This document shows, one piece after another, positions 3-29,421 of a DNA stretch of 64,000 bases; position 1 is the stretch's first letter, and each line of letters opens with the position of its first letter. A program made the translations under genes and the position numbers. This stretch comes from Escherichia phage p000y, in sequence record MK047718.1, one strand, 5' to 3'. A model generated the notes under the pieces. That model saw only the letters and a program-made list of their open reading frames with translations. It was not told the DNA's origin and did not search any database.

Positions 3-1397
3 CATAACGTAATTGTTAACTGGTGTGATATTATTCCTGACTTTGGTTCATGGTCTTGGAATGTTAACGCAATCTATGTTAAGGGTGATGAATGTCGATA
101 TAATTTCGATGGTGAAAATATCACTAACGTAGGTTCAACAGGTGGTAATGTTGTAGGAATTTATCAGTTCAAAGACTGGGAATTCTACATGGGTTCTACT
201 GATGAGGAAATTCACGAATACTGCAAAGGTCGTGATTTCGTAGAATTCCTTTACGGCAGTGCATTCAATAAATCAGAGCTTATGAATCTAATTGATTTAG
301 GTGATATGCCTAAACTTGAAAAGGCTCATGAAGTTCGTGAACTGAATCGTAGTTTTAATGCAGTTGAAATTGGCGAAGAAACTGTAACTAAATTCGCGTT
401 AACCGAACAAGGTCGAGCTCTTCAAAAAGATGAGATTTCATGGTATTTGAAAGTGAAATCAGATTCAGTTCCTCAGTTAGTTTCGGTAAATGAAAATAAT
501 TTTGAAATGGAACGTATTAAAGGTAAGCCGGCATTTGAATATATTAAATCCAAATCAAGTCTTGCTCGTCCACAAATTGTTGATGCAATTTTAGATGCAC
601 TGAAATTCAGCACGGACACTTATTTTGTAAGTCCTGAAACTGTTCGCCGTGATTTCACTAAAGAGTTCTATACGAAAGTTATTGATCGTTGTGAAAGCAT
701 TCAGCCATTGATTGATTCATTTGGTAAAATCACACACGTGAACTACACTAAAATTGGACGTCTGAAGCCAATGTTGAAACAAGCTTTAGAACATCTTATT
801 CGTTATCATAACCGTTCTCAGGGACAGTACTCTGTTATTCATGGTGACCCGAACTTCAGTAATACTATGATTACCGATAACGGCGAAGTCAAGTTTATCG
901 ACCCTCGTGGATATTTTGGTGAAACCAAGATTTACGGGCCAAAATTATATGATGAAGCTAAAGTGCTTTATGCTGTTTCAGGTTATGATGAATTCAATGC
1001 TAATCCGACCTGGGGACAGTTTACTATTGATGAAACAACTTGTAATGTGACTATTAACATCAATCCATTAGTTTACAAATATGGAAAGATGAGTTCGTTT
1101 AACGAGTATCATCATTTGGCTGTAGCAATTATCTGGATTGCATTAGGTGGTTATTTCAAGAATAATCCACTTAAAGCGGTTGCCGCATATTATAAAGGTA
1201 TGGAACTTCTGACTAAGCAATTACGTAACATGGGCCGTGTACTTCAAGACGGCTCTATTAGTTATGACGTAGCAGAACCTGTAACGGCTACTCTGATTAC
1301 AAAAAATCCTGGTAAATGGGTACTAACTGATAAAGAAACTGGTGTTTCCTATCGTCCAATCGGCGGCGATATCACTCATCAATGGGAACGAATCTAA
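3..1397 (+). CDS. Kinase-fold protein (APH/choline-kinase-like), probably 5'-truncated by the window edge
   Basis: Frame is open from nt 3 with no stop before the ATG at 189 and no clear SD at 189. Brenner-type motif HGDPNFSN...KFIDPRGYFG typical of APH/ChoK-like phosphotransferases. Confidence 0.5.
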   Translation, partial: HNVIVNWCDIIPDFGSWSWNVNAIYVKGDECRYNFDGENITNVGSTGGNVVGIYQFKDWEFYMGSTDEEIHEYCKGRDFVEFLYGSAFNKSELMNLIDLGDMPKLEKAHEVRELNRSFNAVEIGEETVTKFALTEQGRALQKDEISWYLKVKSDSVPQLVSVNENNFEMERIKGKPAFEYIKSKSSLARPQIVDAILDALKFSTDTYFVSPETVRRDFTKEFYTKVIDRCESIQPLIDSFGKITHVNYTKIGRLKPMLKQALEHLIRYHNRSQGQYSVIHGDPNFSNTMITDNGEVKFIDPRGYFGETKIYGPKLYDEAKVLYAVSGYDEFNANPTWGQFTIDETTCNVTININPLVYKYGKMSSFNEYHHLAVAIIWIALGGYFKNNPLKAVAAYYKGMELLTKQLRNMGRVLQDGSISYDVAEPVTATLITKNPGKWVLTDKETGVSYRPIGGDITHQWERI

Positions 1398-1783
1398 TGC
1401 ACCGTGTAGAAAACATGCTTAATCTTTGTTTTGATGTCGATGATTGTATAACAGAGTGGAATAACAATCGTGATTACGTGAACTTCAAACCAGACGTCGA
1501 AATGGTGTCTGCCATTAATGCCCTGTATGATGCAGGGCATACCATAACGCTTTACACTGCCCGTGGTATGAAGTCGGTAGGTCCTGGTCGTATAGCAATT
1601 GACATTCTCCCAAGTCTGATTCAGAACTTGGAAAACATTGGTTTGAAGTACCATAATTTGCTAACACATAAACCAGTATATGATTGGATTATCGACGACA
1701 AAGCTATGCGTCCTGACGAATTCAAAGCTCTTATGAATAAAGGCGAATTCGAAACATTTAAATCATATAAACCAAATCTATAA
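1397..1783 (+). CDS. Small HAD-superfamily phosphatase-like protein
   Basis: TAATG overlap with the upstream ORF. N-terminal FDVDDCIT (DxDx motif I), later TARG and IDDKA motifs consistent with a capless HAD fold. Track start 1382 is an alternative. Confidence 0.5.
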   Translation: MHRVENMLNLCFDVDDCITEWNNNRDYVNFKPDVEMVSAINALYDAGHTITLYTARGMKSVGPGRIAIDILPSLIQNLENIGLKYHNLLTHKPVYDWIIDDKAMRPDEFKALMNKGEFETFKSYKPNL

Positions 1784-1829: not shown

Positions 1830-2999
1830 ATGCAAAAAATGAATACTTTTAAAATCGGAACGAATTTTGATTTAGCTCTTCTTGATAAAATCGTAGAGCT
1901 CAATAAAACCTATCCTAATAGCTTGATAAACGAAGTATATGGCTCTACAAGAGAAATGGCTTTTGTAGCAGCCAGACCTGATTTTAGGCTTCCTGACGTT
2001 GACAAAAAGATGTTAGAAGACTACGTTAAACGTTGTAACGAATTAGGTATTTGCTTTAACTATACACTCAACACGATAAATCCTGGTTCAAAAAGAGAAC
2101 TAGTTGAGTGGAAGAAGAAAGCTATTCAGGATTATGTTCAGTATCTTTGGTCAATAGGCGTATGGCGTATTACTATCGCTAACCCTGTTGTTATGGAAAT
2201 TGTTCGTGAAGTCAATAAAGATATTGAGATTGAAGTTTCAACAATTCTACATGTCGATGCGGTAACTCAAATCAAATACTTACATGACCAATATAACATC
2301 AAAAAGGTCTGTTGCGGAATTCATAAGAACCGTTCAGTTTCTTTCCTGAAGCGTGCAGCAGAGTTTTGCAATAAGAACAATATAATATTTGAAGTTCTTG
2401 TAAATGAGTTCTGTTCTAATGCTGGTAAAGGGTATACAACACATTGTAGTTATCGTGACTCTTGCTATATTTTCCATAGTACTGATGTTACCGCTGATGA
2501 TGCTAAATCCTTAAATGGATATCCTATGCAGCACTGTATTAAAGCTCGTGATACAGACCCATTTAACTGGTTGAGAACTCGTTTTGTTCGTCCTCAAGAT
2601 TTGAAACTTTATAATGATATTGGTATCACTCAATTCAAAGTTTCAGGACGTACAGGTAGCACAGACTACATTTTGAAAGTTCTTGAAGCATACGCTTCTG
2701 AAAAGTTTGAAGGTAATTTGTTAGAACTGTGGAAGCCTTTAGAGACTATTTTCACTCTTGAAAATGAGACTGAGTTTTCACATACAGTAAATATTGAAAC
2801 CTCTTTGTTAGATGGCTTTTTAGAAAAAAGGTGGTTCAGACATCCAGATTTTGATTGTGCTAATGAAATCTGTGGGTCAACGTGTACATATTGTGAAAGG
2901 TATTATAAACGTCAATTATCTAAAAACGGGTTAGCAGAAAACTCCATATCTATTATTGATATAACTAACTCTGATGACGCTTTGAGGTACCCGGAATGA
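1830..2999 (+). CDS. Cys-rich 389-aa enzyme, peptidase-U32-like (RlhA/TrhP/UbiU family) by motif resemblance; alternatively an Fe-S protein with C-terminal CxxxCxYC
   Basis: Segments EVYGSTRE, FEVLVNEFCSNAGKGYTTHCSYRDSCY and ITQFKVSGRTGSTDYILKV resemble U32 TIM-barrel motifs as I recall them. C-terminal CANEICGSTCTYC cluster. Family call is unverified. Confidence 0.4.
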   Translation: MQKMNTFKIGTNFDLALLDKIVELNKTYPNSLINEVYGSTREMAFVAARPDFRLPDVDKKMLEDYVKRCNELGICFNYTLNTINPGSKRELVEWKKKAIQDYVQYLWSIGVWRITIANPVVMEIVREVNKDIEIEVSTILHVDAVTQIKYLHDQYNIKKVCCGIHKNRSVSFLKRAAEFCNKNNIIFEVLVNEFCSNAGKGYTTHCSYRDSCYIFHSTDVTADDAKSLNGYPMQHCIKARDTDPFNWLRTRFVRPQDLKLYNDIGITQFKVSGRTGSTDYILKVLEAYASEKFEGNLLELWKPLETIFTLENETEFSHTVNIETSLLDGFLEKRWFRHPDFDCANEICGSTCTYCERYYKRQLSKNGLAENSISIIDITNSDDALRYPE

Positions 3000-3277: not shown

Positions 3278-3994
3278 ATGGGAAAACATAACACAATGAA
3301 ATATATCAAAGCCGCAGATTTTCAAACCGCATTTAAAGCAGTCAATCGTGAAATTTTAGAAAACCCGGAATTCGTAACTGATTCTCGTATTGGACGTTGT
3401 AATGAAATTGGGTCTATGACAGTAGTTGTTGACACTCCATCATCATTCAAAATGACCGACCCACGTATTAACCGCATCTCTTATGAATATGCCGAAGACT
3501 TCTGGAAGTTTATGATTTCTGGTGGTACCAACGCAGAAGAAGCGTTTAAGGCATATCCTAATGTCGCTAAATTTATTTCTAAACCAAAATCAGATGTTTT
3601 GCCGGCGAACTTCAACACTTTCTATGGTCCTCGCATTGCGGCCCAATTACCAACTCTTCTAAAAGAACTTAAAGAAAAACCTAACTCTCGAAGAGTTGTG
3701 TTCCAAATTCTAGAAAGTTCTGATCAGGCTTTGCTTGATTCGGACGAAACACTTGAATATCCATGTACTGACTCAGTAACTTATTATATTCGTGATGGTA
3801 AGCTTTATACCCACTGTCATATGCGTTCTCAGAACTGTGCTGTTGTTATGCAGTTGGATTTTTATCTCCAAGGAAAATTACTTCATTATATCGCTAACGA
3901 ATGCGGTGTAGAAGTTGGTGATTATACTCATACCATGGTAAGTGCCCATGTGTTTGAACGTGATTTTGATTATGTTAAAGGATTCCTTGACTAA
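3278..3994 (+). CDS. 42: Deoxypyrimidylate hydroxymethylase of the thymidylate-synthase family (gp42-like dCMP hydroxymethylase)
   Basis: PNSRR, PCTDSVTYYIRD (catalytic Cys) and MRSQN...QLD motifs align with T4 gp42 PDSRR, MCTNTVQYLIRD, MRSND...RND. Sits directly upstream of the uvsX block as in T4. Appears more diverged than neighbouring core genes. Confidence 0.75.
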   Translation: MGKHNTMKYIKAADFQTAFKAVNREILENPEFVTDSRIGRCNEIGSMTVVVDTPSSFKMTDPRINRISYEYAEDFWKFMISGGTNAEEAFKAYPNVAKFISKPKSDVLPANFNTFYGPRIAAQLPTLLKELKEKPNSRRVVFQILESSDQALLDSDETLEYPCTDSVTYYIRDGKLYTHCHMRSQNCAVVMQLDFYLQGKLLHYIANECGVEVGDYTHTMVSAHVFERDFDYVKGFLD

Positions 3995-4893
3995 TGGCTA
4001 TTTTCCGCGTACCAATCTTGAGTATGCGGTCTTATGAAACTGGACAGTATGCTATCCTTAAGGATGGCAACTTCCAACTTCATTTGCACCGTGCTAATCC
4101 GGGTGATGTGATTACATATCCACGTAATGCATCTGATATTAAAGAATGCGAACGTCTTTTCCCAGAATTTAAGTTTGTTCCATTATGGTATAAAGATAAC
4201 GCGTATAACACTCGTAAATATTTCTGGACTGAAAATGAATTTGTGGTTGATTCATTAATTGATTATTATGATTGTGATTTTCTAATCACAGATATCACTG
4301 GTTATGGCGGCGCTTTTGATGTGGAATTCAATTTCAATATCACTGCAGACCCTAATAAACCACGTTTTTATATTGATGAATTCTTAAAAACCGACATGTT
4401 GTCTGTTAATCGTTCACTTCAAACTACTGTGTTGAATGAACGTCAAAAAGAAGTGCTGGTTAACGCAGGTGCAGATGGTAATAAGATTATCGTAACGCAG
4501 AAAGTTATACGTCCTTCCATCATGCAGCGTCTTGTAGGTGATTTGGCTCCTATTCATCTAGATGGTATTTTTCATCCATTTCGAATTAGTGACCCATGTT
4601 ATCGTTTTGAACAAGTGGTTGAATGTGCAATTCAATTAGGTCAACCGCTTTATATAACCGATCCAAATAATAGCTTCGACAGAAATAAGTATCCTGAAGA
4701 AGCGCTGATTCGAATTTTTAAACCAACTAAAACTGAGTACTATCAAATTCTTAAAGGACGTCCGAAAATTCAATATTTCGAAAATCCTGAAGAAGTATTC
4801 CATCCAGGTCTTGGTGAGTTCATCTACTTTAATGCTTTAATTTCTTCGCCGTATAATATACCTAAATACGAAGATGTCGTAATCGAGGAATAA
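3994..4893 (+). CDS. Hypothetical protein (299 aa) in the position T4 uses for beta-glucosyltransferase
   Basis: TAATG-coupled to gene 42. No resemblance to T4 beta-GT that I can see. Contains a YYDCDFLITD (DxD-like) segment. Function is inferred only from position. Confidence 0.5.
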   Translation: MAIFRVPILSMRSYETGQYAILKDGNFQLHLHRANPGDVITYPRNASDIKECERLFPEFKFVPLWYKDNAYNTRKYFWTENEFVVDSLIDYYDCDFLITDITGYGGAFDVEFNFNITADPNKPRFYIDEFLKTDMLSVNRSLQTTVLNERQKEVLVNAGADGNKIIVTQKVIRPSIMQRLVGDLAPIHLDGIFHPFRISDPCYRFEQVVECAIQLGQPLYITDPNNSFDRNKYPEEALIRIFKPTKTEYYQILKGRPKIQYFENPEEVFHPGLGEFIYFNALISSPYNIPKYEDVVIEE

Positions 4894-4894
4894 A

Positions 4895-5443
4895 ATGGCT
4901 AAAATTATTTTAGTAGATGGCCCGGATAATGCTGGTAAAACAACTTTCATTAATGACATAATGGAAATTAGTGAAAGATATGTAAAGATTGATTTCCCTA
5001 AACGAACAGTTGATGGACGTTTCGATGTTAAGTCTCGAAATGAAGTTGGCTGTTTCGAAACGATGTTGAATTATTTAGACCCTACTAAGATTTATCTGTT
5101 AGACCGTGGATATATTAGTAACTGGGTTTATGGACGTATTCGACAAGATGCGGACTCGATTCTTGACGTTTATGAACAGGACTATGTTCGTCTTTGCCAA
5201 AACCATGATGTGTTCACAATTATTTTAACACGTAACGAAATGACTGAAAGTTTTGAAGACGACCTTATTACTTTGTCTTCATTCGGTTTTAATACAGTCA
5301 TTTCACATTTTGAAGAGTTTGCAATTCATAACAAAATCCAAACGTATCAATTACTTAATCATGATGGTGCTAACAAAGTTATAGGATTTAATGCAAGCGA
5401 ACGTAATTATTTGATTACAGAAATTATCAAATGGGCTCGTTAA
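4895..5443 (+). CDS. P-loop nucleotide kinase, thymidylate-kinase-like
   Basis: Walker A GPDNAGKTT and LLDRGYISNWVYG (TMK-like DR(Y/H)xxSxxxYxG) motifs; 182 aa. Confidence 0.5.
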   Translation: MAKIILVDGPDNAGKTTFINDIMEISERYVKIDFPKRTVDGRFDVKSRNEVGCFETMLNYLDPTKIYLLDRGYISNWVYGRIRQDADSILDVYEQDYVRLCQNHDVFTIILTRNEMTESFEDDLITLSSFGFNTVISHFEEFAIHNKIQTYQLLNHDGANKVIGFNASERNYLITEIIKWAR

Positions 5444-23941: not shown

Positions 23942-25759
23942 ATGATTAAAAATGAAATTAAGGTATTGTCAGATGTAGAACATATTAAGAAACGTAGTGG
24001 TATGTATATTGGTTCTTCTGCTAAAGAAGCACATGAGCGTTTTTTGTTTGGTAAATATCAACAAGTTGAATATGTTCCAGGTCTGGTTAAATTAATCGAT
24101 GAGATTATTGACAACTCGGTTGATGAAGCTATTCGTACATCATTTAAGTTTGCAAATAAAATTGATGTGCAAATTAAAAATAATCAAGTTTCGGTGGAAG
24201 ATAACGGACGTGGTATTCCTCAAGGTTTAGTTACCGACCAAACAGGTGAACAAATTCCTGGTCCTGTAGCAGCCTGGACTATTCCAAAGGCCGGTGGTAA
24301 CTTTGGTGATGACTCTGAACGCAAGACTGGTGGTATGAACGGCGTCGGGAGTAGTTTAACTAATATCTTCTCTACGTTGTTTACAGGCATCACGTCAGAT
24401 GGCGAAAATGAAATCACTGTTAACTGTTCAAACGGAATGGAAAACAAATCATGGTCTTCTAAGAAATCTAAAGGTAAAGGCACTAAAGTAATCTTCACTC
24501 CTGATTTCTCTTCATTTGAAGAGCATAATTTATCTCAAATTTATTTAGATATTACTTTAGACAGACTTCAAACATTGGCAGTCGTTTATCCTGATATCAA
24601 GTTCACATTTAATGGTAAAAAGGTTGATGGTAATTTTAAACGATTTGCTAAACAATTTGGTGAAGATAACATCATTCAAGAAAATGATAAAGTCTCTATA
24701 GCATTCACAACATCACCAGATGGCTTCCGTCATTTAACTTATGTGAATAACATCCATACTAAAAATGGTGGTCATCATGTTGAATGTGTAATGGATGATA
24801 TCTGCGAACATCTTTTGCCTGGTATTAAAAAGAAATATAAGGGTATTGAAGTCACTAAAGCTCGTGTTAAAGAATGCCTCACAATGTTGATGTTTATTAG
24901 AGACATGAGCAATATGCGTTTTGATTCTCAGACTAAAGAACGTTTAACGTCAACGTATGGTGATATTCGTAATCATATCCAATTAGATGCTAAGAAAATT
25001 GCTCAGGCACTTCTTAAAAACGAAGCCTTGATTATGCCTATTGTTGAAGCAGCATTAGCTCGTAAATTGGCGGCAGAAAAGGCTGCAGAAACTAAAGCAG
25101 CTAAAAAGGCAACTAAAGCTAAGGTTCATAAGCATATTAAAGCTAACCAATGTGGTAAAGACGCAGATACGACATTGTTCTTAACAGAAGGTGATTCTGC
25201 AATTGGTTATCTCATTGATGTTCGTGACCGTGAACTACACGGCGGATTCCCATTACGTGGTAAGGTGATGAATAGCTGGGGTATGTCATATGCGGATATG
25301 ATGAAGAACAAAGAGCTCTTTGATATCTGTGCTATCACAGGTCTTATTCTTGGTGAAAAGGCCGAGAATACGAACTATCGTAATATTGCAATTATGACTG
25401 ACGCAGATCACGACGGTCTTGGAAGTATCTATCCGGCTTTGCTTGCTTTCTTTAGTAATTGGCCTGAATTGTTTGAACAAGGACGTATTCGCTTTGTTAA
25501 AACACCTGTAATTATTGCACAAATTGGCAAAACTCAAAAATGGTTTTATACTGTAGCTGAGTATGAAGAAGTTAAAGATACACTGCCTAAGCATAGTATT
25601 CGATACATCAAGGGATTAGGCTCCCTTGAAAAGTCAGAGTATCGTGAAATGATTCAGAACCCTGTGTACGACGTAGTTAAACTTCCTGAAAATTGGAAAG
25701 AACTCTTTGAAATGTTGATGGGTGATGATTCAGAACTTCGTAAAGAATGGATGTCCTAA
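23942..25759 (+). CDS. 39: DNA topoisomerase II large subunit (GyrB-like), continuous 39/60 fusion
   Basis: 605 aa; GHKL ATPase motifs (IDEIIDNSVDEA, GGMNGVGSS), TOPRIM (LTEGDSA) and the C-terminal part corresponding to T4 gp60 in one uninterrupted frame. Confidence 0.9.
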   Translation: MIKNEIKVLSDVEHIKKRSGMYIGSSAKEAHERFLFGKYQQVEYVPGLVKLIDEIIDNSVDEAIRTSFKFANKIDVQIKNNQVSVEDNGRGIPQGLVTDQTGEQIPGPVAAWTIPKAGGNFGDDSERKTGGMNGVGSSLTNIFSTLFTGITSDGENEITVNCSNGMENKSWSSKKSKGKGTKVIFTPDFSSFEEHNLSQIYLDITLDRLQTLAVVYPDIKFTFNGKKVDGNFKRFAKQFGEDNIIQENDKVSIAFTTSPDGFRHLTYVNNIHTKNGGHHVECVMDDICEHLLPGIKKKYKGIEVTKARVKECLTMLMFIRDMSNMRFDSQTKERLTSTYGDIRNHIQLDAKKIAQALLKNEALIMPIVEAALARKLAAEKAAETKAAKKATKAKVHKHIKANQCGKDADTTLFLTEGDSAIGYLIDVRDRELHGGFPLRGKVMNSWGMSYADMMKNKELFDICAITGLILGEKAENTNYRNIAIMTDADHDGLGSIYPALLAFFSNWPELFEQGRIRFVKTPVIIAQIGKTQKWFYTVAEYEEVKDTLPKHSIRYIKGLGSLEKSEYREMIQNPVYDVVKLPENWKELFEMLMGDDSELRKEWMS

Positions 25760-25782
25760 GCTCCTTCGGGAGCTTCATTTTA
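25759..25782 (+). terminator. Hairpin terminator after gene 39
   Basis: AAGCTCC-TTCG-GGAGCTT followed by a T-rich tract. Confidence 0.5.
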
Positions 25783-25801
25783 ATTTTAATAAGGCTTAAT
25801 T

Positions 25802-26902
25802 ATGAAAGTTATGTTTATCCCATCTCGCGCAGTCCCATTTAACCCAGAACGTGTACAAGGTGGTCTTGAAGCAGTACATTTAAATGTGTTGAAATATTTA
25901 GTTTCTATCTGTGCTGATATTGATTATATCGGTTTTGATAATGACACATTTGGTGATTGGAAGGTTAATCATCATCCTGTTGGTCATCTGACAAAATTCA
26001 GTCTAGGTATGAGTTATACTATGGCTCGTAAGATTGTTGAACTAGCCGGCATCCATGAATACGATTTCGTTGTTACTATGGAACCGACTAAACTAACCGT
26101 TCAGGCAATTAAAGACGCAGGCCTCTCTAAAGTTCATAAGAATTTTATGGCAACACCATTTGAACCGGTATCTCGTGGCATTGTTCAAATTTGGGACCAG
26201 ACTATTCAAATTCATAAGAATGGTGGTAAGAGTTATGCTCCTACTAAAGCCTTCCGTGAATTTGAACGCAAATATTGTTATATGACTTCAGGTCTGACTG
26301 ACAAAATTGATTATGATTATTGGCGAGCAAATCCGTTGTTTGAAGCCGAAGATTATCCGGTTATTTGTTTGAATGAGAAACCTGAAGTTCTTCCGGCGAC
26401 GGATCTGATTATTAGTGCACAACGTTATGACACTAAAATGCGTCGTACTGATGTTGCTCTTGAAGCGATTAAAGCACTAGGCGAAAATGGTGCAGGATAC
26501 TGTCCTAGTAAATGGGCACCACCAGCTAAATATCCTGTTATTATTGATGCTCCACACAGTGAAATCATGGAACGCCTTAAAACAGCTAAAGCACTTATTA
26601 ATACGTGTCCTGACACAGGTACGGTAGAGAATAGTTCTATTGAAGCCATCTCTAAAGGTGTCCCTGTAATCCAGTTAGTTTTTAAGGATTATCCTCATGC
26701 GACATTTGAATACGACCCAGATACTGTGCGTGTAGAAATTGATTCCTCTACTCCTAAGAAAGAAGTAGTTGCGCTTTACACAAAAGCTGTATTAGAATTC
26801 ACTGACACATACGAAGCTCGAGTTAAACGTGCTGAAGCAGTATGGAAGAAGTATAACCGAGATGCAGTTGTTGCGATGTGGGATAAAATCTTCACAGCGT
26901 AA
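25802..26902 (+). CDS. GT-B fold glycosyltransferase (GT4-like), candidate DNA sugar transferase
   Basis: C-terminal DTGTVENSSIEAISKGVPVI resembles the GT-B EX7E / donor-binding segment; 366 aa; inserted between 39 and rIIA. Confidence 0.55.
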   Translation: MKVMFIPSRAVPFNPERVQGGLEAVHLNVLKYLVSICADIDYIGFDNDTFGDWKVNHHPVGHLTKFSLGMSYTMARKIVELAGIHEYDFVVTMEPTKLTVQAIKDAGLSKVHKNFMATPFEPVSRGIVQIWDQTIQIHKNGGKSYAPTKAFREFERKYCYMTSGLTDKIDYDYWRANPLFEAEDYPVICLNEKPEVLPATDLIISAQRYDTKMRRTDVALEAIKALGENGAGYCPSKWAPPAKYPVIIDAPHSEIMERLKTAKALINTCPDTGTVENSSIEAISKGVPVIQLVFKDYPHATFEYDPDTVRVEIDSSTPKKEVVALYTKAVLEFTDTYEARVKRAEAVWKKYNRDAVVAMWDKIFTA

Positions 26903-26918
26903 ATCCTGAATAGCCTGA

Positions 26919-26969
26919 GGCACTATTACACATAAGATGATAGATTATATGGTCTTTAGTAATAGTGCC
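26919..26969 (+). repeat. 11-bp perfect inverted repeat GGCACTATTAC / GTAATAGTGCC with a 29-nt spacer
   Basis: Read directly; lies between the glycosyltransferase gene and the rIIA.1-like ORF. Confidence 0.5.
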
Positions 26970-26994
26970 CTAGGAATCTACTGAAGAGAATATT

Positions 26995-27195
26995 ATGAGA
27001 ACATATAACGTGGACTTGGAACTTTTTGATAAAGCAGTGCTCCGGGAATTCCGGCTTATCCAAAGATTTTTTGATATTGAGTCAGCAGAGTCCTTTAAAG
27101 AACGCTTTAAAGAAATTCGATATAAAATACAAACTGATACAGCTACTAAAGAAGAACTTCTCGAAGTGGCAGAAATTTTTAAACGTAACTTGTGA
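26995..27195 (+). CDS. Hypothetical protein (66 aa), rIIA.1 position
   Basis: RBS GAAGAGAA; immediately upstream of rIIA. Confidence 0.4.
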   Translation: MRTYNVDLELFDKAVLREFRLIQRFFDIESAESFKERFKEIRYKIQTDTATKEELLEVAEIFKRNL

Positions 27196-27207: not shown

Positions 27208-29421
27208 ATGATTATTGAAACGGCTAAAGAAACAATTATTGGTTCAGGCGGTAAGAGCACAGCATTTACTATTCAAGGCAATAGCAAAGTTTATAAGATT
27301 TTGTCTAATGACCTTTATACAAACAAAGAATTGGCTTGTGTACGTGAATTAATCACAAACTGTATCGATGGACAAATTCTTAATGGTTGCACCGACAAGT
27401 TTATTGTTCAGGCTCCAGGTCGTTTAGACCCACGTTTTGTAGTTCGAGACTTTGGTCCTGGTATGAGTGATTTCACCATTCGAGGTAATGATGAAGAGCC
27501 AGGAATCTATAACTCATATTTTGCTTCAACTAAAACATCGAGTAACGATTTCATTGGTGGTTTCGGTCTCGGTTCTAAAGCTCCATTAGCATATACTGAT
27601 ACGTTTAACCTTACGTCTTATCACAACGGTGAAGTTCGTGGTTACGTAATTTACCAAGATGACACGGGTCCACAAATTAAGCCAACCTTTGTAGATAAGA
27701 TGGGCCCTGATGACAGTACGGGTGTAGAAGTAGTTGTACCGGTTAACCCAGAAGATTTTGAAAAGTTCGCATCCGAAATTGCTTATGTTATGCGTCCTCT
27801 CGGCGATATTGCAGAAGTTCGTGGTGTTAAAGATATTAAATACTTTCCTGAATTTGACGATGTATATTTGGCCAAGGAAGCTCCATGGGGTGAACGTGGT
27901 AATATCATGGCTGTTTATGGTGGTATTGTATATCCAATCGGAAGTGTTATTAAAGAACAAACATGGATGATGACACGATGCACTACAGCTTATATTAAAT
28001 TCCCTATGGGTGAACTAGATGTAGCCCCGTCTCGTGAAGCATTGTCATTTGATAAACGTACAGTAGCAAATATCCATAAACGCGTTGCAGAAATCGATGC
28101 AAAATTATTTGCTGAAGATTCTAAGAAATGGATTGATTGTGAATATCCACGTCATGTATTCCGTGAAATCGATTCTCTTGGTTACTCTGCTCGTAAATAT
28201 ATGGAAAAGGCCGGGTCTAATATTGAATCACTGAAATACTCTAAAGAACAACTAACTTATTCTGAGTTGTACAAACGTTTTAAAATGGGGCCTGAGTGGT
28301 GTAATCTTGGTGTCGTATACGATATCGTTGAATCCCCTCGTCTTCGTCGTATTCGTGAAAGCGGTAGCTCAACGGCAACCATTTCAATTAACAGTCTGAT
28401 TGGCATTAACATTAAAAACGTTGAAATTGTTATTGACGACGTTAAGGGACGCGTTCCATTAATGCGAGCTCTTAATTCAATTGAAATGTCTAAAGACGAG
28501 GTTAAATTAACCGGTAAAGTTCCACGCGGTTTTGGTAAAAGCGTACTATTCGTTGACCCTACAGACGAAGATGCAATGAAACTTCTGGAACGCCTTAAAG
28601 TTATCTTTGATGGCGACAACATTAACATGTACAAGACTTCAGAGCTTTTACAAATCGTTAAGCCATGGATTGAAGTCAAGACTCGTTCTAATGGGCCTCG
28701 TCCTAAATCCCCAAGTGCTCATCGGTTCTTTAAGAATGAAAACGATGTTTGGGTATCAGAAGACCTCTTTATTCCGGCAAGTGAAGCAGATGAAATCCAA
28801 GGTTATGCTATAGTTCGTAATCGTTCTAATGCTGAATGTCTTGACTCAGATAAAGGTTGGTTGAACTATGACTCCAATTTCTTGACCCGTATTGCTGATT
28901 TGTCAGGTATTAAAGAGTTCACTGTAGTTCGTCCACAGATTGCTAAGAAAGTTCGTAAACTTGGTGAAGTAGAATGCTTGTTCGAAAAATCAATTAATGA
29001 CTATATTACGCTAATCGATAAAGTAGATTATGATGAGTATGTATCACCAAGTCGTAGAGCACAGCCCTATCTAAACCATATTACTCGTAATGAAGAGCTT
29101 AACTTCCTTAGTAAGTATTTTAGCTCTAAGAACAAAGAAATCAGTAAAGACTTTGCAAAACTCTCCACAGTAAATAATCGCTGGGGATGGAATCGATTCG
29201 CAGGTGCTACTAATACAGACCTGAATAAGAAGTTAGAATTGTGTGCTAAAATTTTCGATAAGCTTAAAGATAATGCTTACGATAATGATGATAAAATGGT
29301 TATTGAATTCGAAACCAATTATCATATTGTGTCAGACTACATGGGACGACGTGGTACTCTTTCCAAAGAACAGGTCGCTCAAATCGTTAAATTCATGAAG
29401 GCCGTGGAAGCGGCCAAATAA
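27208..29421 (+). CDS. rIIA: rIIA (membrane-associated lysis inhibition / exclusion protein with a GHKL-like N-terminal domain)
   Basis: 737 aa; N-terminal ATPase-like motifs (ELITNCIDG, GGFGLGSK); size and position match T4 rIIA. Confidence 0.85.
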   Translation: MIIETAKETIIGSGGKSTAFTIQGNSKVYKILSNDLYTNKELACVRELITNCIDGQILNGCTDKFIVQAPGRLDPRFVVRDFGPGMSDFTIRGNDEEPGIYNSYFASTKTSSNDFIGGFGLGSKAPLAYTDTFNLTSYHNGEVRGYVIYQDDTGPQIKPTFVDKMGPDDSTGVEVVVPVNPEDFEKFASEIAYVMRPLGDIAEVRGVKDIKYFPEFDDVYLAKEAPWGERGNIMAVYGGIVYPIGSVIKEQTWMMTRCTTAYIKFPMGELDVAPSREALSFDKRTVANIHKRVAEIDAKLFAEDSKKWIDCEYPRHVFREIDSLGYSARKYMEKAGSNIESLKYSKEQLTYSELYKRFKMGPEWCNLGVVYDIVESPRLRRIRESGSSTATISINSLIGINIKNVEIVIDDVKGRVPLMRALNSIEMSKDEVKLTGKVPRGFGKSVLFVDPTDEDAMKLLERLKVIFDGDNINMYKTSELLQIVKPWIEVKTRSNGPRPKSPSAHRFFKNENDVWVSEDLFIPASEADEIQGYAIVRNRSNAECLDSDKGWLNYDSNFLTRIADLSGIKEFTVVRPQIAKKVRKLGEVECLFEKSINDYITLIDKVDYDEYVSPSRRAQPYLNHITRNEELNFLSKYFSSKNKEISKDFAKLSTVNNRWGWNRFAGATNTDLNKKLELCAKIFDKLKDNAYDNDDKMVIEFETNYHIVSDYMGRRGTLSKEQVAQIVKFMKAVEAAK

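Follow-up and report, generated by a model that had tools for sequence, protein, structure and literature searches.

Between the topoisomerase gene 39 and rIIA of Escherichia phage p000y lies an ATG-initiated open reading frame (ORF) of 366 amino acids. The question that this locus raises is which sugar its product might transfer, and onto which acceptor. The window analysed here is the whole stretch of 64,000 nucleotides from sequence record MK047718.1. The ORF and its surroundings are arranged as follows:

23942..25759: gene 39, encoding a 605-aa gyrase-B/Toprim protein, upstream of the 366-aa ORF
25760..25775 (+): UUCG-loop hairpin GCUCCUUCGGGAGC with a U-rich tract after it, directly 3' of the gene 39 stop codon; terminator-like
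25802..26902 (+): the 366-aa ORF, a glycosyltransferase gene
26612..26671 (+): donor-binding segment DTGTVENSSIEAISKGVPVI, residues 271-290 of the 366-aa protein, including the family-invariant E281
26914..26974 (+): strong hairpin in the 92 nt that separate the glycosyltransferase gene from rIIA.1
26995..27195: rIIA.1, downstream of the 366-aa ORF (Pfam T4_RIIA1, E=2e-30)
27208..29421: rIIA, downstream of rIIA.1

The locus and its known Mosigvirus gene

The sequence-only reading had placed a glycosyltransferase gene between gene 39 and rIIA, and this placement stands, with gene 39 before the ORF and rIIA.1 and rIIA behind it. It also stated correctly that the T4 glucosyltransferase genes lie elsewhere, a-gt adjoining gene 47 and b-gt adjoining gene 42. 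The further remark that T4 has only rIIA.1 in this interval is true only when the count starts where the topoisomerase coding sequence ends, since gene 39 is unsplit in the window and split into 39 and 60 in T4; otherwise 60, 60.1 and mobA lie in between (T4 order: rIIA, rIIA.1, 60, 60.1, mobA, 39). Some 397 records of more distant T-even phages show rIIA.1 and rIIA contiguous with the gene 39 end and no gene of similar size between them, and the 366-aa gene is thus an insertion relative to those phages.

An AAGG Shine-Dalgarno sequence (25791-25794) precedes the ORF, and its 42-nt leader is kept in six Mosigvirus genomes, among them AV114, where a homing-endonuclease gene lies upstream of this leader. 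The hairpin behind gene 39 folds with -10.5 kcal/mol (z=-1.6 against shuffles). The one in the spacer before rIIA.1 reaches -28.6 kcal/mol (z=-4.4, with 1 of 200 shuffles equally stable) and is nearly identical in Bas46, HY126, SSE1 and RB69. A promoter scan around the 366-aa gene returned six sites against 6.3 expected from shuffled sequence, i.e., no excess.

The window belongs to a Mosigvirus (RB69-like) genome, and the gene is the already described RB69ORF003c/gp3-type glycosyltransferase of RB69-like phages; no new biology comes from the window in this respect. DNA identity to RB69ORF003c is about 98%, and 155 phage records carry the gene at 90-99% DNA identity. It appears to be present in all of the approximately 155 Mosigvirus records, and a flank-junction query revealed no apparent Mosigvirus genome that naturally lacks it. 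The protein matches PHROG 8302 over residues 1-366 (E=2.5e-222) and PDB entry 9iqz (E=2e-195), which together with 9ir0 represents the 'phage HY126 glycosyltransferase', apo and 'with UDP', a near-identical orthologue. Over the 366 residues there are three differences from RB69 and nine from HY126. RB69 ORF003c, Bas46 bas46_0103 and the HY126 glycosyltransferase are the same gene at the same gene 39/rIIA.1 position (96.6-98.1% nucleotide identity), from which the window copy departs by strain-level substitutions only. Residue 37 is a cysteine in the window protein and a glycine in the five other Mosigvirus orthologues compared.

[quoted passage not shown] An arabinosyltransferase function was predicted for RB69ORF003c in 2018, at a time when no other glycosyltransferase had been recognised in RB69 (Thomas et al., 2018; PMC6024577), bas46_0103 is annotated in Bas46 as 'putative hmC-arabinosyltransferase', and RB69ORF003c is treated as RB69 gp3 in more recent work (Lee et al., 2026; PMC13326640). 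The protein is probably also the Aat of Bas46, i.e., Aat would be bas46_0103.

A variable interval, in which other T-even phages have nothing or small ORFs, and the homing endonuclease gene adjoining the glycosyltransferase gene in AV114 would both suit an insertion between gene 39 and rIIA.1 that is in decay or serves no function. The selection analysis effectively refutes this explanation. All six Mosigvirus orthologues examined are intact 366-codon ORFs with pairwise dN/dS of 0.05-0.17 at dS up to 0.32, and the gene is under strong purifying selection. Its apparent presence in all Mosigvirus records and the crystallisation of an orthologue with UDP bound likewise speak against an insertion without function.

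Fold and glycosyltransferase class

The prediction of a GT-B glycosyltransferase devoted to phage DNA sugar modification is supported; as to the fold, it agrees with the apo and UDP-bound crystal structures of the HY126 orthologue and with a Foldseek comparison. In the latter, 9ir0 and 9iqz ranked on top and all further matches (PimA, WaaG, BshA and WlaC among others, probability 1.00) were GT-B enzymes of GT4 type. Our own AlphaFold2 model, built from a six-sequence alignment and of poor quality (pLDDT 59.6, N-domain below 50), served only to retrieve these structural neighbours. A Pfam scan of the 366-aa protein gave zero families at E<=1 and no glycosyltransferase model, and family placement was therefore taken from PHROGs, PDB and phage genomes.

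The C-terminal donor-binding segment had been described as GT4-like. This is true of its structural neighbours and of the conserved E281, but the Pfam GT4 models are unmatched and the canonical E-x7-E motif is absent from the C-terminal domain, which reads E276-N-S-S-I-E281 with a spacing of four; no Glu lies eight residues to either side of E276 or E281. By HMMs and motif, the window protein falls outside CAZy GT4 and Pfam Glycos_transf_1 and Glyco_transf_4. Weak Pfam matches occur in one to three of 14 family members (GT4-conflict, 0.0011; Glycos_transf_1, 2.3e-5; Glyco_transf_4, 1.6e-7). In the alignment of these 14 sequences T274, E281, A282 and G286 are invariant and E276 is not, and Thomas et al. 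(2018; PMC6024577) matched E281 to E311 of T4 a-gt, a residue that binds ribose. The best structural neighbours outside the family (PimA, WaaG, BshA, MshA and WlaC) share with the window protein an architecture of two Rossmann domains and, in the segment that binds the nucleotide, a conserved C-terminal Glu. These bacterial enzymes are only 9-16% identical to it, however, and use lipid or small-molecule acceptors with retaining chemistry, whereas the bond attributed to the window enzyme is beta.

T4 a-gt and b-gt are likewise phage GT-B enzymes that transfer a UDP-sugar onto C5-modified cytosine in DNA after replication. A profile comparison with them detected no relation (hhalign probability 0.13% for a-gt and 0.17% for b-gt, a weak comparison as the templates were single sequences), while a fold-level HHpred similarity to 1XV5 was reported earlier (Thomas et al., 2018; PMC6024577). 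The T4 enzymes differ in sugar (glucose versus arabinofuranose), in modified base (5-hydroxymethylcytosine versus 5-hydroxycytosine) and in genome position, and they act on the base, whereas the probable acceptor of the window enzyme is a sugar hydroxyl.

DNA chemistry and the arabinosylation cluster

The suggestion that this phage arabinosylates rather than glucosylates its DNA fits the known chemistry of the genus, but its proposed acceptor, a hydroxymethyl-pyrimidine, does not. In Mosigvirus DNA, arabinose is ether-linked to 5-hydroxycytosine without a hydroxymethyl bridge, according to work of 2025-26, and the RB69 nucleoside structure has been solved by NMR. The window holds the corresponding gene cluster:

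3..1397 (+): C-terminal kinase part of the sugar kinase/UDP-arabinose pyrophosphorylase (RB69 gp52:53, HY126 AfhE), with weak kinase-family Pfam matches
1382..1783 (+): 133-aa homologue of RB69 gp51/HY126 AfhF, position matching RB69ORF051c
1830..2999 (+): 389-aa peptidase-U32-like homologue of RB69 gp50, a conserved member of the cluster (Pfam Peptidase_U32, E=7e-11)
3278..3994 (+): thymidylate-synthase homologue at the gene 42 position, 5-hydroxy-dCMP (5hodCMP) synthase (Pfam Thymidylat_synt, E=1.9e-15)
3994..4893 (+): 299-aa ORF, candidate first transferase, homologue of RB69 gp46:47, DLP3 gp79 and Thanatos TH1_063
4895..5443 (+): 182-aa putative nucleotide kinase, RB69 gp45 homologue, position and size matching RB69ORF045c (role: PMC13326640)

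The thymidylate-synthase homologue is identical to RB69 gp48 in 235 of 238 residues, and RB69 gp48 has been shown experimentally to make 5hodCMP, not 5hmdCMP (PMC13326640). From this match and from Mosigvirus DNA chemistry we infer that the acceptor is not 5-hydroxymethylcytosine. RB69 gp52:53/HY126 AfhE acts as a bifunctional sugar kinase/UDP-arabinose pyrophosphorylase and RB69 gp51/HY126 AfhF as a HAD-type sugar phosphatase in UDP-arabinose synthesis (PMC13326640). A suspected frameshift in the AfhE homologue was rejected: a single open frame runs from base 3 to 1397, and the gene is cut by the window edge. The U32-like protein has a counterpart of the same kind in Thanatos TH1_065. A single window thus contains the 5hodCMP synthase, the 299-aa candidate for the first transferase, genes of UDP-arabinose synthesis and the 366-aa glycosyltransferase gene.

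Homologues of the 299-aa ORF occur in 348 phage records of many genera and always adjoin the thymidylate-synthase homologue; no sequence similarity was found between the 299-aa ORF and the 366-aa protein. This type of protein has been proposed as the first (base-proximal, alpha) arabinosyltransferase (PMC13326640), although its Thanatos homologue TH1_063 reportedly showed UDP-xylose pyrophosphorylase activity in vitro (PMC12838424).

Family copy number and the proposed transfer of a second arabinose

The Aat/RB69 gp3/DLP3 gp76-gp77 family (PHROG 8302) is tiny, and a deep alignment is impossible. A word-indexed homologue search returned five clusters only, and an exhaustive profile search across 1.84 billion representatives only 12. 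Among phages, the family comprises 211 records, namely Mosigvirus, Acinetobacter phages with two copies each and one Tegunavirus record, compared with 348 records for the 299-aa protein and 373 for the 5hodCMP synthase, which span over a dozen genera. One member, P0009 (38% identical), sits within a block of virion structural genes on an unrelated phage contig.

The closest comparison is with Acinetobacter phage DLP3, which like Mosigvirus carries poly-arabinosylated 5-hydroxycytosine. Its gp77 (43% identity, E=1e-108) and gp76 (41%, E=4e-99), named beta-arabinosyltransferases 2/3, align end to end with the window protein and share its invariant residues, including R208, R214, T274 and E281. 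The DLP3 proteins are two tandem paralogues within the arabinosylation cluster, whereas the window has a single copy approximately 21 kb from its cluster. With UDP-Araf, gp76 and gp77 together add arabinose to RB69 DNA in vitro; each is inactive alone, and the third sugar is added in vitro only when the two are combined (PMC13326640). Lee et al. implied that the protein found in the window is a specific orthologue of gp77. We reject this, as it branches outside the gp76/gp77 duplication (bootstrap 100). Judged from this tree, the duplication is younger than the split from the Mosigvirus lineage and the window enzyme is co-orthologous to both paralogues. Linkage specificity therefore cannot be transferred to it by orthology.

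Across the phages compared, the copy number of the family tracks the number of arabinoses, with zero, one and two copies for one, two and three sugars. Mono-arabinosylated LC53 has none: a filter-free six-frame HMM scan of its 172,075-bp genome gave a best E of 0.21, with positive controls at 496-595 bits, and the interval from its topoisomerase gene to rIIA.1 holds just two small ORFs. Nor was any Shewanella-phage match obtained in the family search of phage records, giving zero copies for mono-arabinosylated Thanatos. Thanatos TH1_065 (378 aa, at the position of DLP3 gp77) was considered as a hidden member and rejected, being Peptidase_U32-like with an hhalign probability of 0.14%. RB69, NP and Bas46, whose DNA carries mono- plus di-arabinose, have one copy each, and tri-arabinosylated DLP3 has two. 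In this comparison the family is confined to phages with at least two arabinoses per cytosine, and a copy number that rises with the extra arabinoses and is zero in single-arabinose phages fits a chain-extending, second-sugar role.

We therefore posit, at a probability of roughly 80%, that the 366-aa enzyme adds a second arabinose onto arabinosyl-5-hydroxycytosine in phage DNA, as Lee et al. have proposed for RB69 gp3 (PMC13326640; a proposal only). According to this model, 5-hydroxy-dC would replace dC, made as 5hodCMP by the thymidylate-synthase homologue (3278..3994). The first arabinofuranose would be joined in alpha configuration to the C5 oxygen; the 299-aa protein (3994..4893) is the most likely enzyme for this step. 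The 366-aa enzyme, UDP-sugar-dependent and of the GT-B type, would then use UDP-arabinofuranose to place another D-arabinofuranose on O3 of the first one, in beta configuration and on DNA, to yield beta-D-Araf-(1->3)-alpha-D-Araf-O5-cytosine. The beta-1,3 bond, the action on DNA and the donor UDP-Araf are what we infer for this enzyme. The bulk of the added sugar may give stronger protection against host DNA-targeting defences.

A functional analogue of such a second transferase is the gentiobiosyl-forming beta-alpha-glucosyltransferase of T2/T6, which builds a disaccharide on phage DNA by adding to the first sugar. It handles a hexose and belongs to a different protein family, whereas the window enzyme would handle a pentofuranose; gentiobiosyl data support the comparison (PMC13390438).

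The sequence-only reading had assigned to the enzyme the transfer of a sugar onto the base itself. An enzyme that places the first arabinose directly on the modified cytosine would agree with Thomas et al. (2018; PMC6024577) and with the Bas46 annotation, and no other glycosyltransferase was recognised in RB69 in 2018. The competing first transferase is moreover unproven, given the pyrophosphorylase activity of TH1_063 (PMC12838424), and no single DLP3 glycosyltransferase was active on 5hoC-DNA in vitro (PMC13326640). LC53 and Thanatos, however, have arabinosylated DNA without any family member, and the series of zero, one and two copies for one, two and three arabinoses follows the additional sugars. 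Bas46 remained viable after deletion of 'the arabinosyltransferase Aat' and became more sensitive to a defence system (PMC13216743), whereas Thanatos hardly propagated once its core pathway gene TH1_060 was lost (PMC12838424). We therefore consider the base-proximal role improbable and the second-sugar role the better account of the enzyme.

Less probable still is an enzyme that acts on a non-DNA target (for instance a virion protein or a glycolipid of the host envelope) or that uses a sugar other than arabinose. The nearest solved structures outside the family are lipid or LPS glycosyltransferases (PimA, WaaG), and the position of P0009 among virion genes would be in line with such a target. 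Among sequenced phages, however, the family occurs only in genomes with the 5hodCMP-synthase/arabinose cluster, in numbers that match the extra arabinoses, and the DLP3 paralogues are encoded within the arabinosylation cluster and, supplied with UDP-Araf, act on DNA in vitro (PMC13326640).

For the favoured second-sugar role, the stereochemistry has consequences for mechanism. With the first arabinose alpha and the second beta, a single UDP-Araf pool would imply two phage transferases with opposite stereochemical outcomes. Should UDP-alpha-D-Araf be the donor, as suggested by the MurU-like pyrophosphorylase domain, the 366-aa enzyme would be the inverting one. We tentatively raise the possibility, which we think rather doubtful, of an inverting beta-(1->3)-D-arabinofuranosyltransferase on the scaffold of retaining GT4 relatives, with a sugar tethered to duplex DNA as acceptor. 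If the enzyme is inverting, the nearly invariant D88 of the N-domain is a candidate catalytic base. A further idea is that family members are obligate dimers, a homodimer in the window phage and a gp76/gp77 heterodimer in DLP3; if true, the latter would account for the in-vitro requirement for the two DLP3 proteins together.

Work published in 2018-2026 already covers the gene, its fold and its proposed role. If the second-sugar role is true, family copy number would serve as a genomic predictor of DNA chemistry, with zero, one and two copies indicating mono-, di- and tri-arabinosyl DNA. Whether a phage used in therapy or as a model escapes a given restriction, CRISPR or glycosylase defence is decided by the sugars on its DNA, and the number of arabinoses appears to tune this protection against host defences.

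The glycosyltransferase gene and its surroundings

The sequence-only reading had placed a glycosyltransferase gene between gene 39 and the rII region, and its exact position was borne out:

25802..26902, + strand: glycosyltransferase ORF, 366 aa, ATG start (ORF call)
23942..25759: gene 39, 605-aa gyrase-B/Toprim protein, upstream
26995..27195: rIIA.1, downstream (Pfam T4_RIIA1, E=2e-30)

rIIA and rIIB follow downstream, the window is co-linear with Bas46, and the GC content of the gene is not unusual relative to its flanks. The T4 gene order is rIIA, rIIA.1, 60, 60.1, mobA, 39. The claim that T4 has only rIIA.1 in this interval holds only from the topoisomerase coding end, since genes 39 and 60 form a single unsplit gene in the window; otherwise 60, 60.1 and mobA also lie between rIIA.1 and 39. 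The T4 alpha- and beta-glucosyltransferase genes (a-gt, b-gt) lie where they had been said to lie, near gene 47 and next to gene 42. In a junction query built from both flanks, the flanks were contiguous in ~397 more distant T-even records, and in the high-identity Mosigvirus records displayed the query matched at two separate places.

Both sides of the gene carry hairpins. GCUCCUUCGGGAGC (25760-25775), which begins right behind the stop codon of gene 39 and ends 26 nt ahead of the glycosyltransferase start codon, folds into a UUCG-tetraloop hairpin followed by a U-rich tail. The 42-nt leader is kept even in AV114, whose upstream gene is a homing endonuclease, not gene 39. The 92-nt spacer before rIIA.1 holds a long hairpin (26914-26974, -28.6 kcal/mol, z=-4.4) with a perfect 12-bp core, AGGCACTATTAC/GTAATAGTGCCT, nearly unchanged in Bas46, HY126, SSE1 and RB69; no U-tract was found 3' of it. 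This hairpin may serve in RNA processing or stability, or may regulate rIIA.1 translation.

Fold and family

At the DNA level the gene shares 98% identity with RB69ORF003c and with 155 Escherichia/Shigella phage records of the genus Mosigvirus, and the Bas46 record already labels it 'putative hmC-arabinosyltransferase'. Across six orthologues dN/dS was 0.05-0.17 (dS up to 0.32). Codon 37 (25910-25912) encodes Cys in the window and Gly in all five other orthologues (RB69, Bas46, HY126, AV114, SSE1), which appears to be a strain-specific N-domain substitution.

No Pfam model matched the protein at E<=1, and PHROG 8302 ('unknown function') matched it end to end. A sequence profile search of the PDB returned a single overwhelming match, 9iqz/9ir0 (E=2e-195), titled 'phage HY126 glycosyltransferase' and the same 'with UDP' (titles via Foldseek; release July 2025). 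HY126 is a Mosigvirus whose orthologue occupies the same position and differs by 9 aa. The fold assignment rests on this solved orthologue, because the AlphaFold model of the window protein was poor (pLDDT 59.6). The structural comparison proposed earlier gave, after 9iqz/9ir0, only GT-B enzymes of GT4 type (WlaC, PimA, WaaG, BshA, tetrahydrobiopterin glucosyltransferase, SenB); profile comparison with T4 a-gt, T4 b-gt and the 299-aa ORF of the window found no sequence relationship. The canonical GT4 E-x7-E motif is missing, and the segment DTGTVENSSIEAISKGVPVI (residues 271-290) has E276-x4-E281 instead; R208, R214, T274 and E281 are invariant in 14 family members.

The HY126 GenBank translation (L004:3453-4553) reads L288-G289, whereas the 9iqz sequence and all other Mosigvirus orthologues read P288-V289; one of these two entries probably contains a mistake or a variant. 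With 12 representatives in 1.84 billion clustered proteins, the family is very small. One 38%-identical member, P0009 (L013:10001-11140, Logan contig SRR34261890_53613, an unrelated phage), lies among virion structural genes (M23 peptidase, gp13-like, DPBB, DUF4815, terminase), and the wider family may thus not be limited to DNA modification clusters.

The modified base and the pathway genes

Arabinose was detected in RB69 DNA by Thomas et al. (2018), who proposed ORF003c as the arabinosyltransferase on HMM and HHpred evidence (PMC6024577). Lee et al. (2026) revised the chemistry: in RB69 DNA, 5-hydroxycytosine bearing one or two arabinoses takes the place of all cytosine, an ether bond joins the sugar to C5, and gp48, a thymidylate-synthase homologue, acts on the nucleotide to install the hydroxyl (PMC13326640). 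By NMR the RB69 nucleoside is beta-D-Araf-(1->3)-alpha-D-Araf-O5-hydroxy-dC, and Acinetobacter phage DLP3 carries one more arabinose, beta-(1->5) (PMC13326640). For Mosigvirus NP, the Durham-collection paper independently found a 1:4 ratio of 5-ara-dC to 5-ara-ara-dC. Two arabinoses are added in Bas46 and Bas47, and one in LC53.

The window encodes the corresponding pathway:

3278..3994: 5hodCMP-synthase homologue, 3/238 residues different from RB69 gp48
3994..4893, + strand: first-transferase candidate, 299 aa
4895..5443: kinase
arabinosylation cluster: U32-like protein
arabinosylation cluster: small phosphatase homologue
at the window start, truncated: kinase half of the bifunctional UDP-arabinose enzyme

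The phage therefore makes 5-hydroxycytosine, not the hydroxymethyl-pyrimidine assumed earlier; its synthase matches RB69 gp48 at 235/238 residues. The sequence-only reading was right about enzyme class and general purpose and wrong about base, probable acceptor and presumed novelty. Publications already describe this gene and its structure and propose its role.

The 299-aa candidate has no Pfam match. In the GenBank RB69 record one extra T (GTAGTGTG vs window GTAGGTG, ~4537; L014:798-1698) divides its gene into ORF046c and ORF047c; the intact window ORF supports the published view that this split is a sequencing error. The LC53 cluster includes a chorismate-mutase-domain protein (L006:21181-21525), and a DAHP synthase is encoded elsewhere in that genome (L017:45375-46391); neither has a counterpart in the window's cluster.

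Which sugar the enzyme adds

In the scheme proposed by Lee et al., gp46:47 would be the first transferase, and the present gene, gp3, would encode 'beta-arabinosyltransferase 2'; their assays covered DLP3 proteins only, and gp76 and gp77 in combination, supplied with UDP-Araf, added a third arabinose to RB69 DNA (PMC13326640). The window protein is 43% identical to gp77 and 41% to gp76 over its full length. These two share 57% identity and group together, with bootstrap 100, to the exclusion of the window protein, which is therefore co-orthologous to both; orthology thus gives no linkage specificity.

Matches to the first-transferase candidate came from 348 phage records and matches to the synthase from 373, with hosts including Escherichia, Klebsiella, Serratia, Enterobacter, Proteus, Yersinia, Edwardsiella, Shewanella and Acinetobacter. 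The 366-aa family is found in 211: as a single copy in Mosigvirus, as two copies in each of 55 Acinetobacter phages, and in one record named Tegunavirus. LC53 has a complete arabinosylation cluster and only two small ORFs from the topoisomerase gene to rIIA.1. A family HMM scan, filters off, of all stop-to-stop segments >=60 aa in its full 172,075-bp genome found no member (best E=0.21, 6.5 bits; window, gp77 and gp76 as positive controls, 496-595 bits). LC53 and Thanatos lack the family, and copy numbers of 0, 1 and 2 match one, two and three arabinoses. A 378-aa Thanatos protein in the gp77 position was considered as a hidden glycosyltransferase and rejected as U32-like.

That arabinosylated phages exist without any family member is hard to reconcile with the main rival, in which the enzyme puts the first sugar on the base. 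This rival survives only through doubt about which protein makes the base-sugar bond: TH1_063 (L005:5995-6897), the Thanatos homologue of the 299-aa protein, reportedly acts in vitro as a UDP-xylose pyrophosphorylase (PMC12838424), and single DLP3 enzymes were inactive on 5hoC-DNA. We posit instead, with a probability of roughly 0.8, that the protein is a UDP-dependent GT-B enzyme that would extend the base-proximal alpha-arabinofuranose on DNA with a beta-(1->3) arabinofuranose. If a single UDP-Araf pool feeds both steps, the two transferases would have to differ in stereochemical outcome, the first sugar being alpha and the second beta.

Yersinia phage TG1 carries the first-transferase candidate only; if the match in the one 'Tegunavirus' record is real, di-arabinosylated DNA is expected in that phage. 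Bas46 deleted for 'the arabinosyltransferase Aat' is viable and becomes susceptible to a plasmid-borne defence (PMC13216743). For the phage, the second sugar would thicken the coat that blocks DNA-targeting defences.
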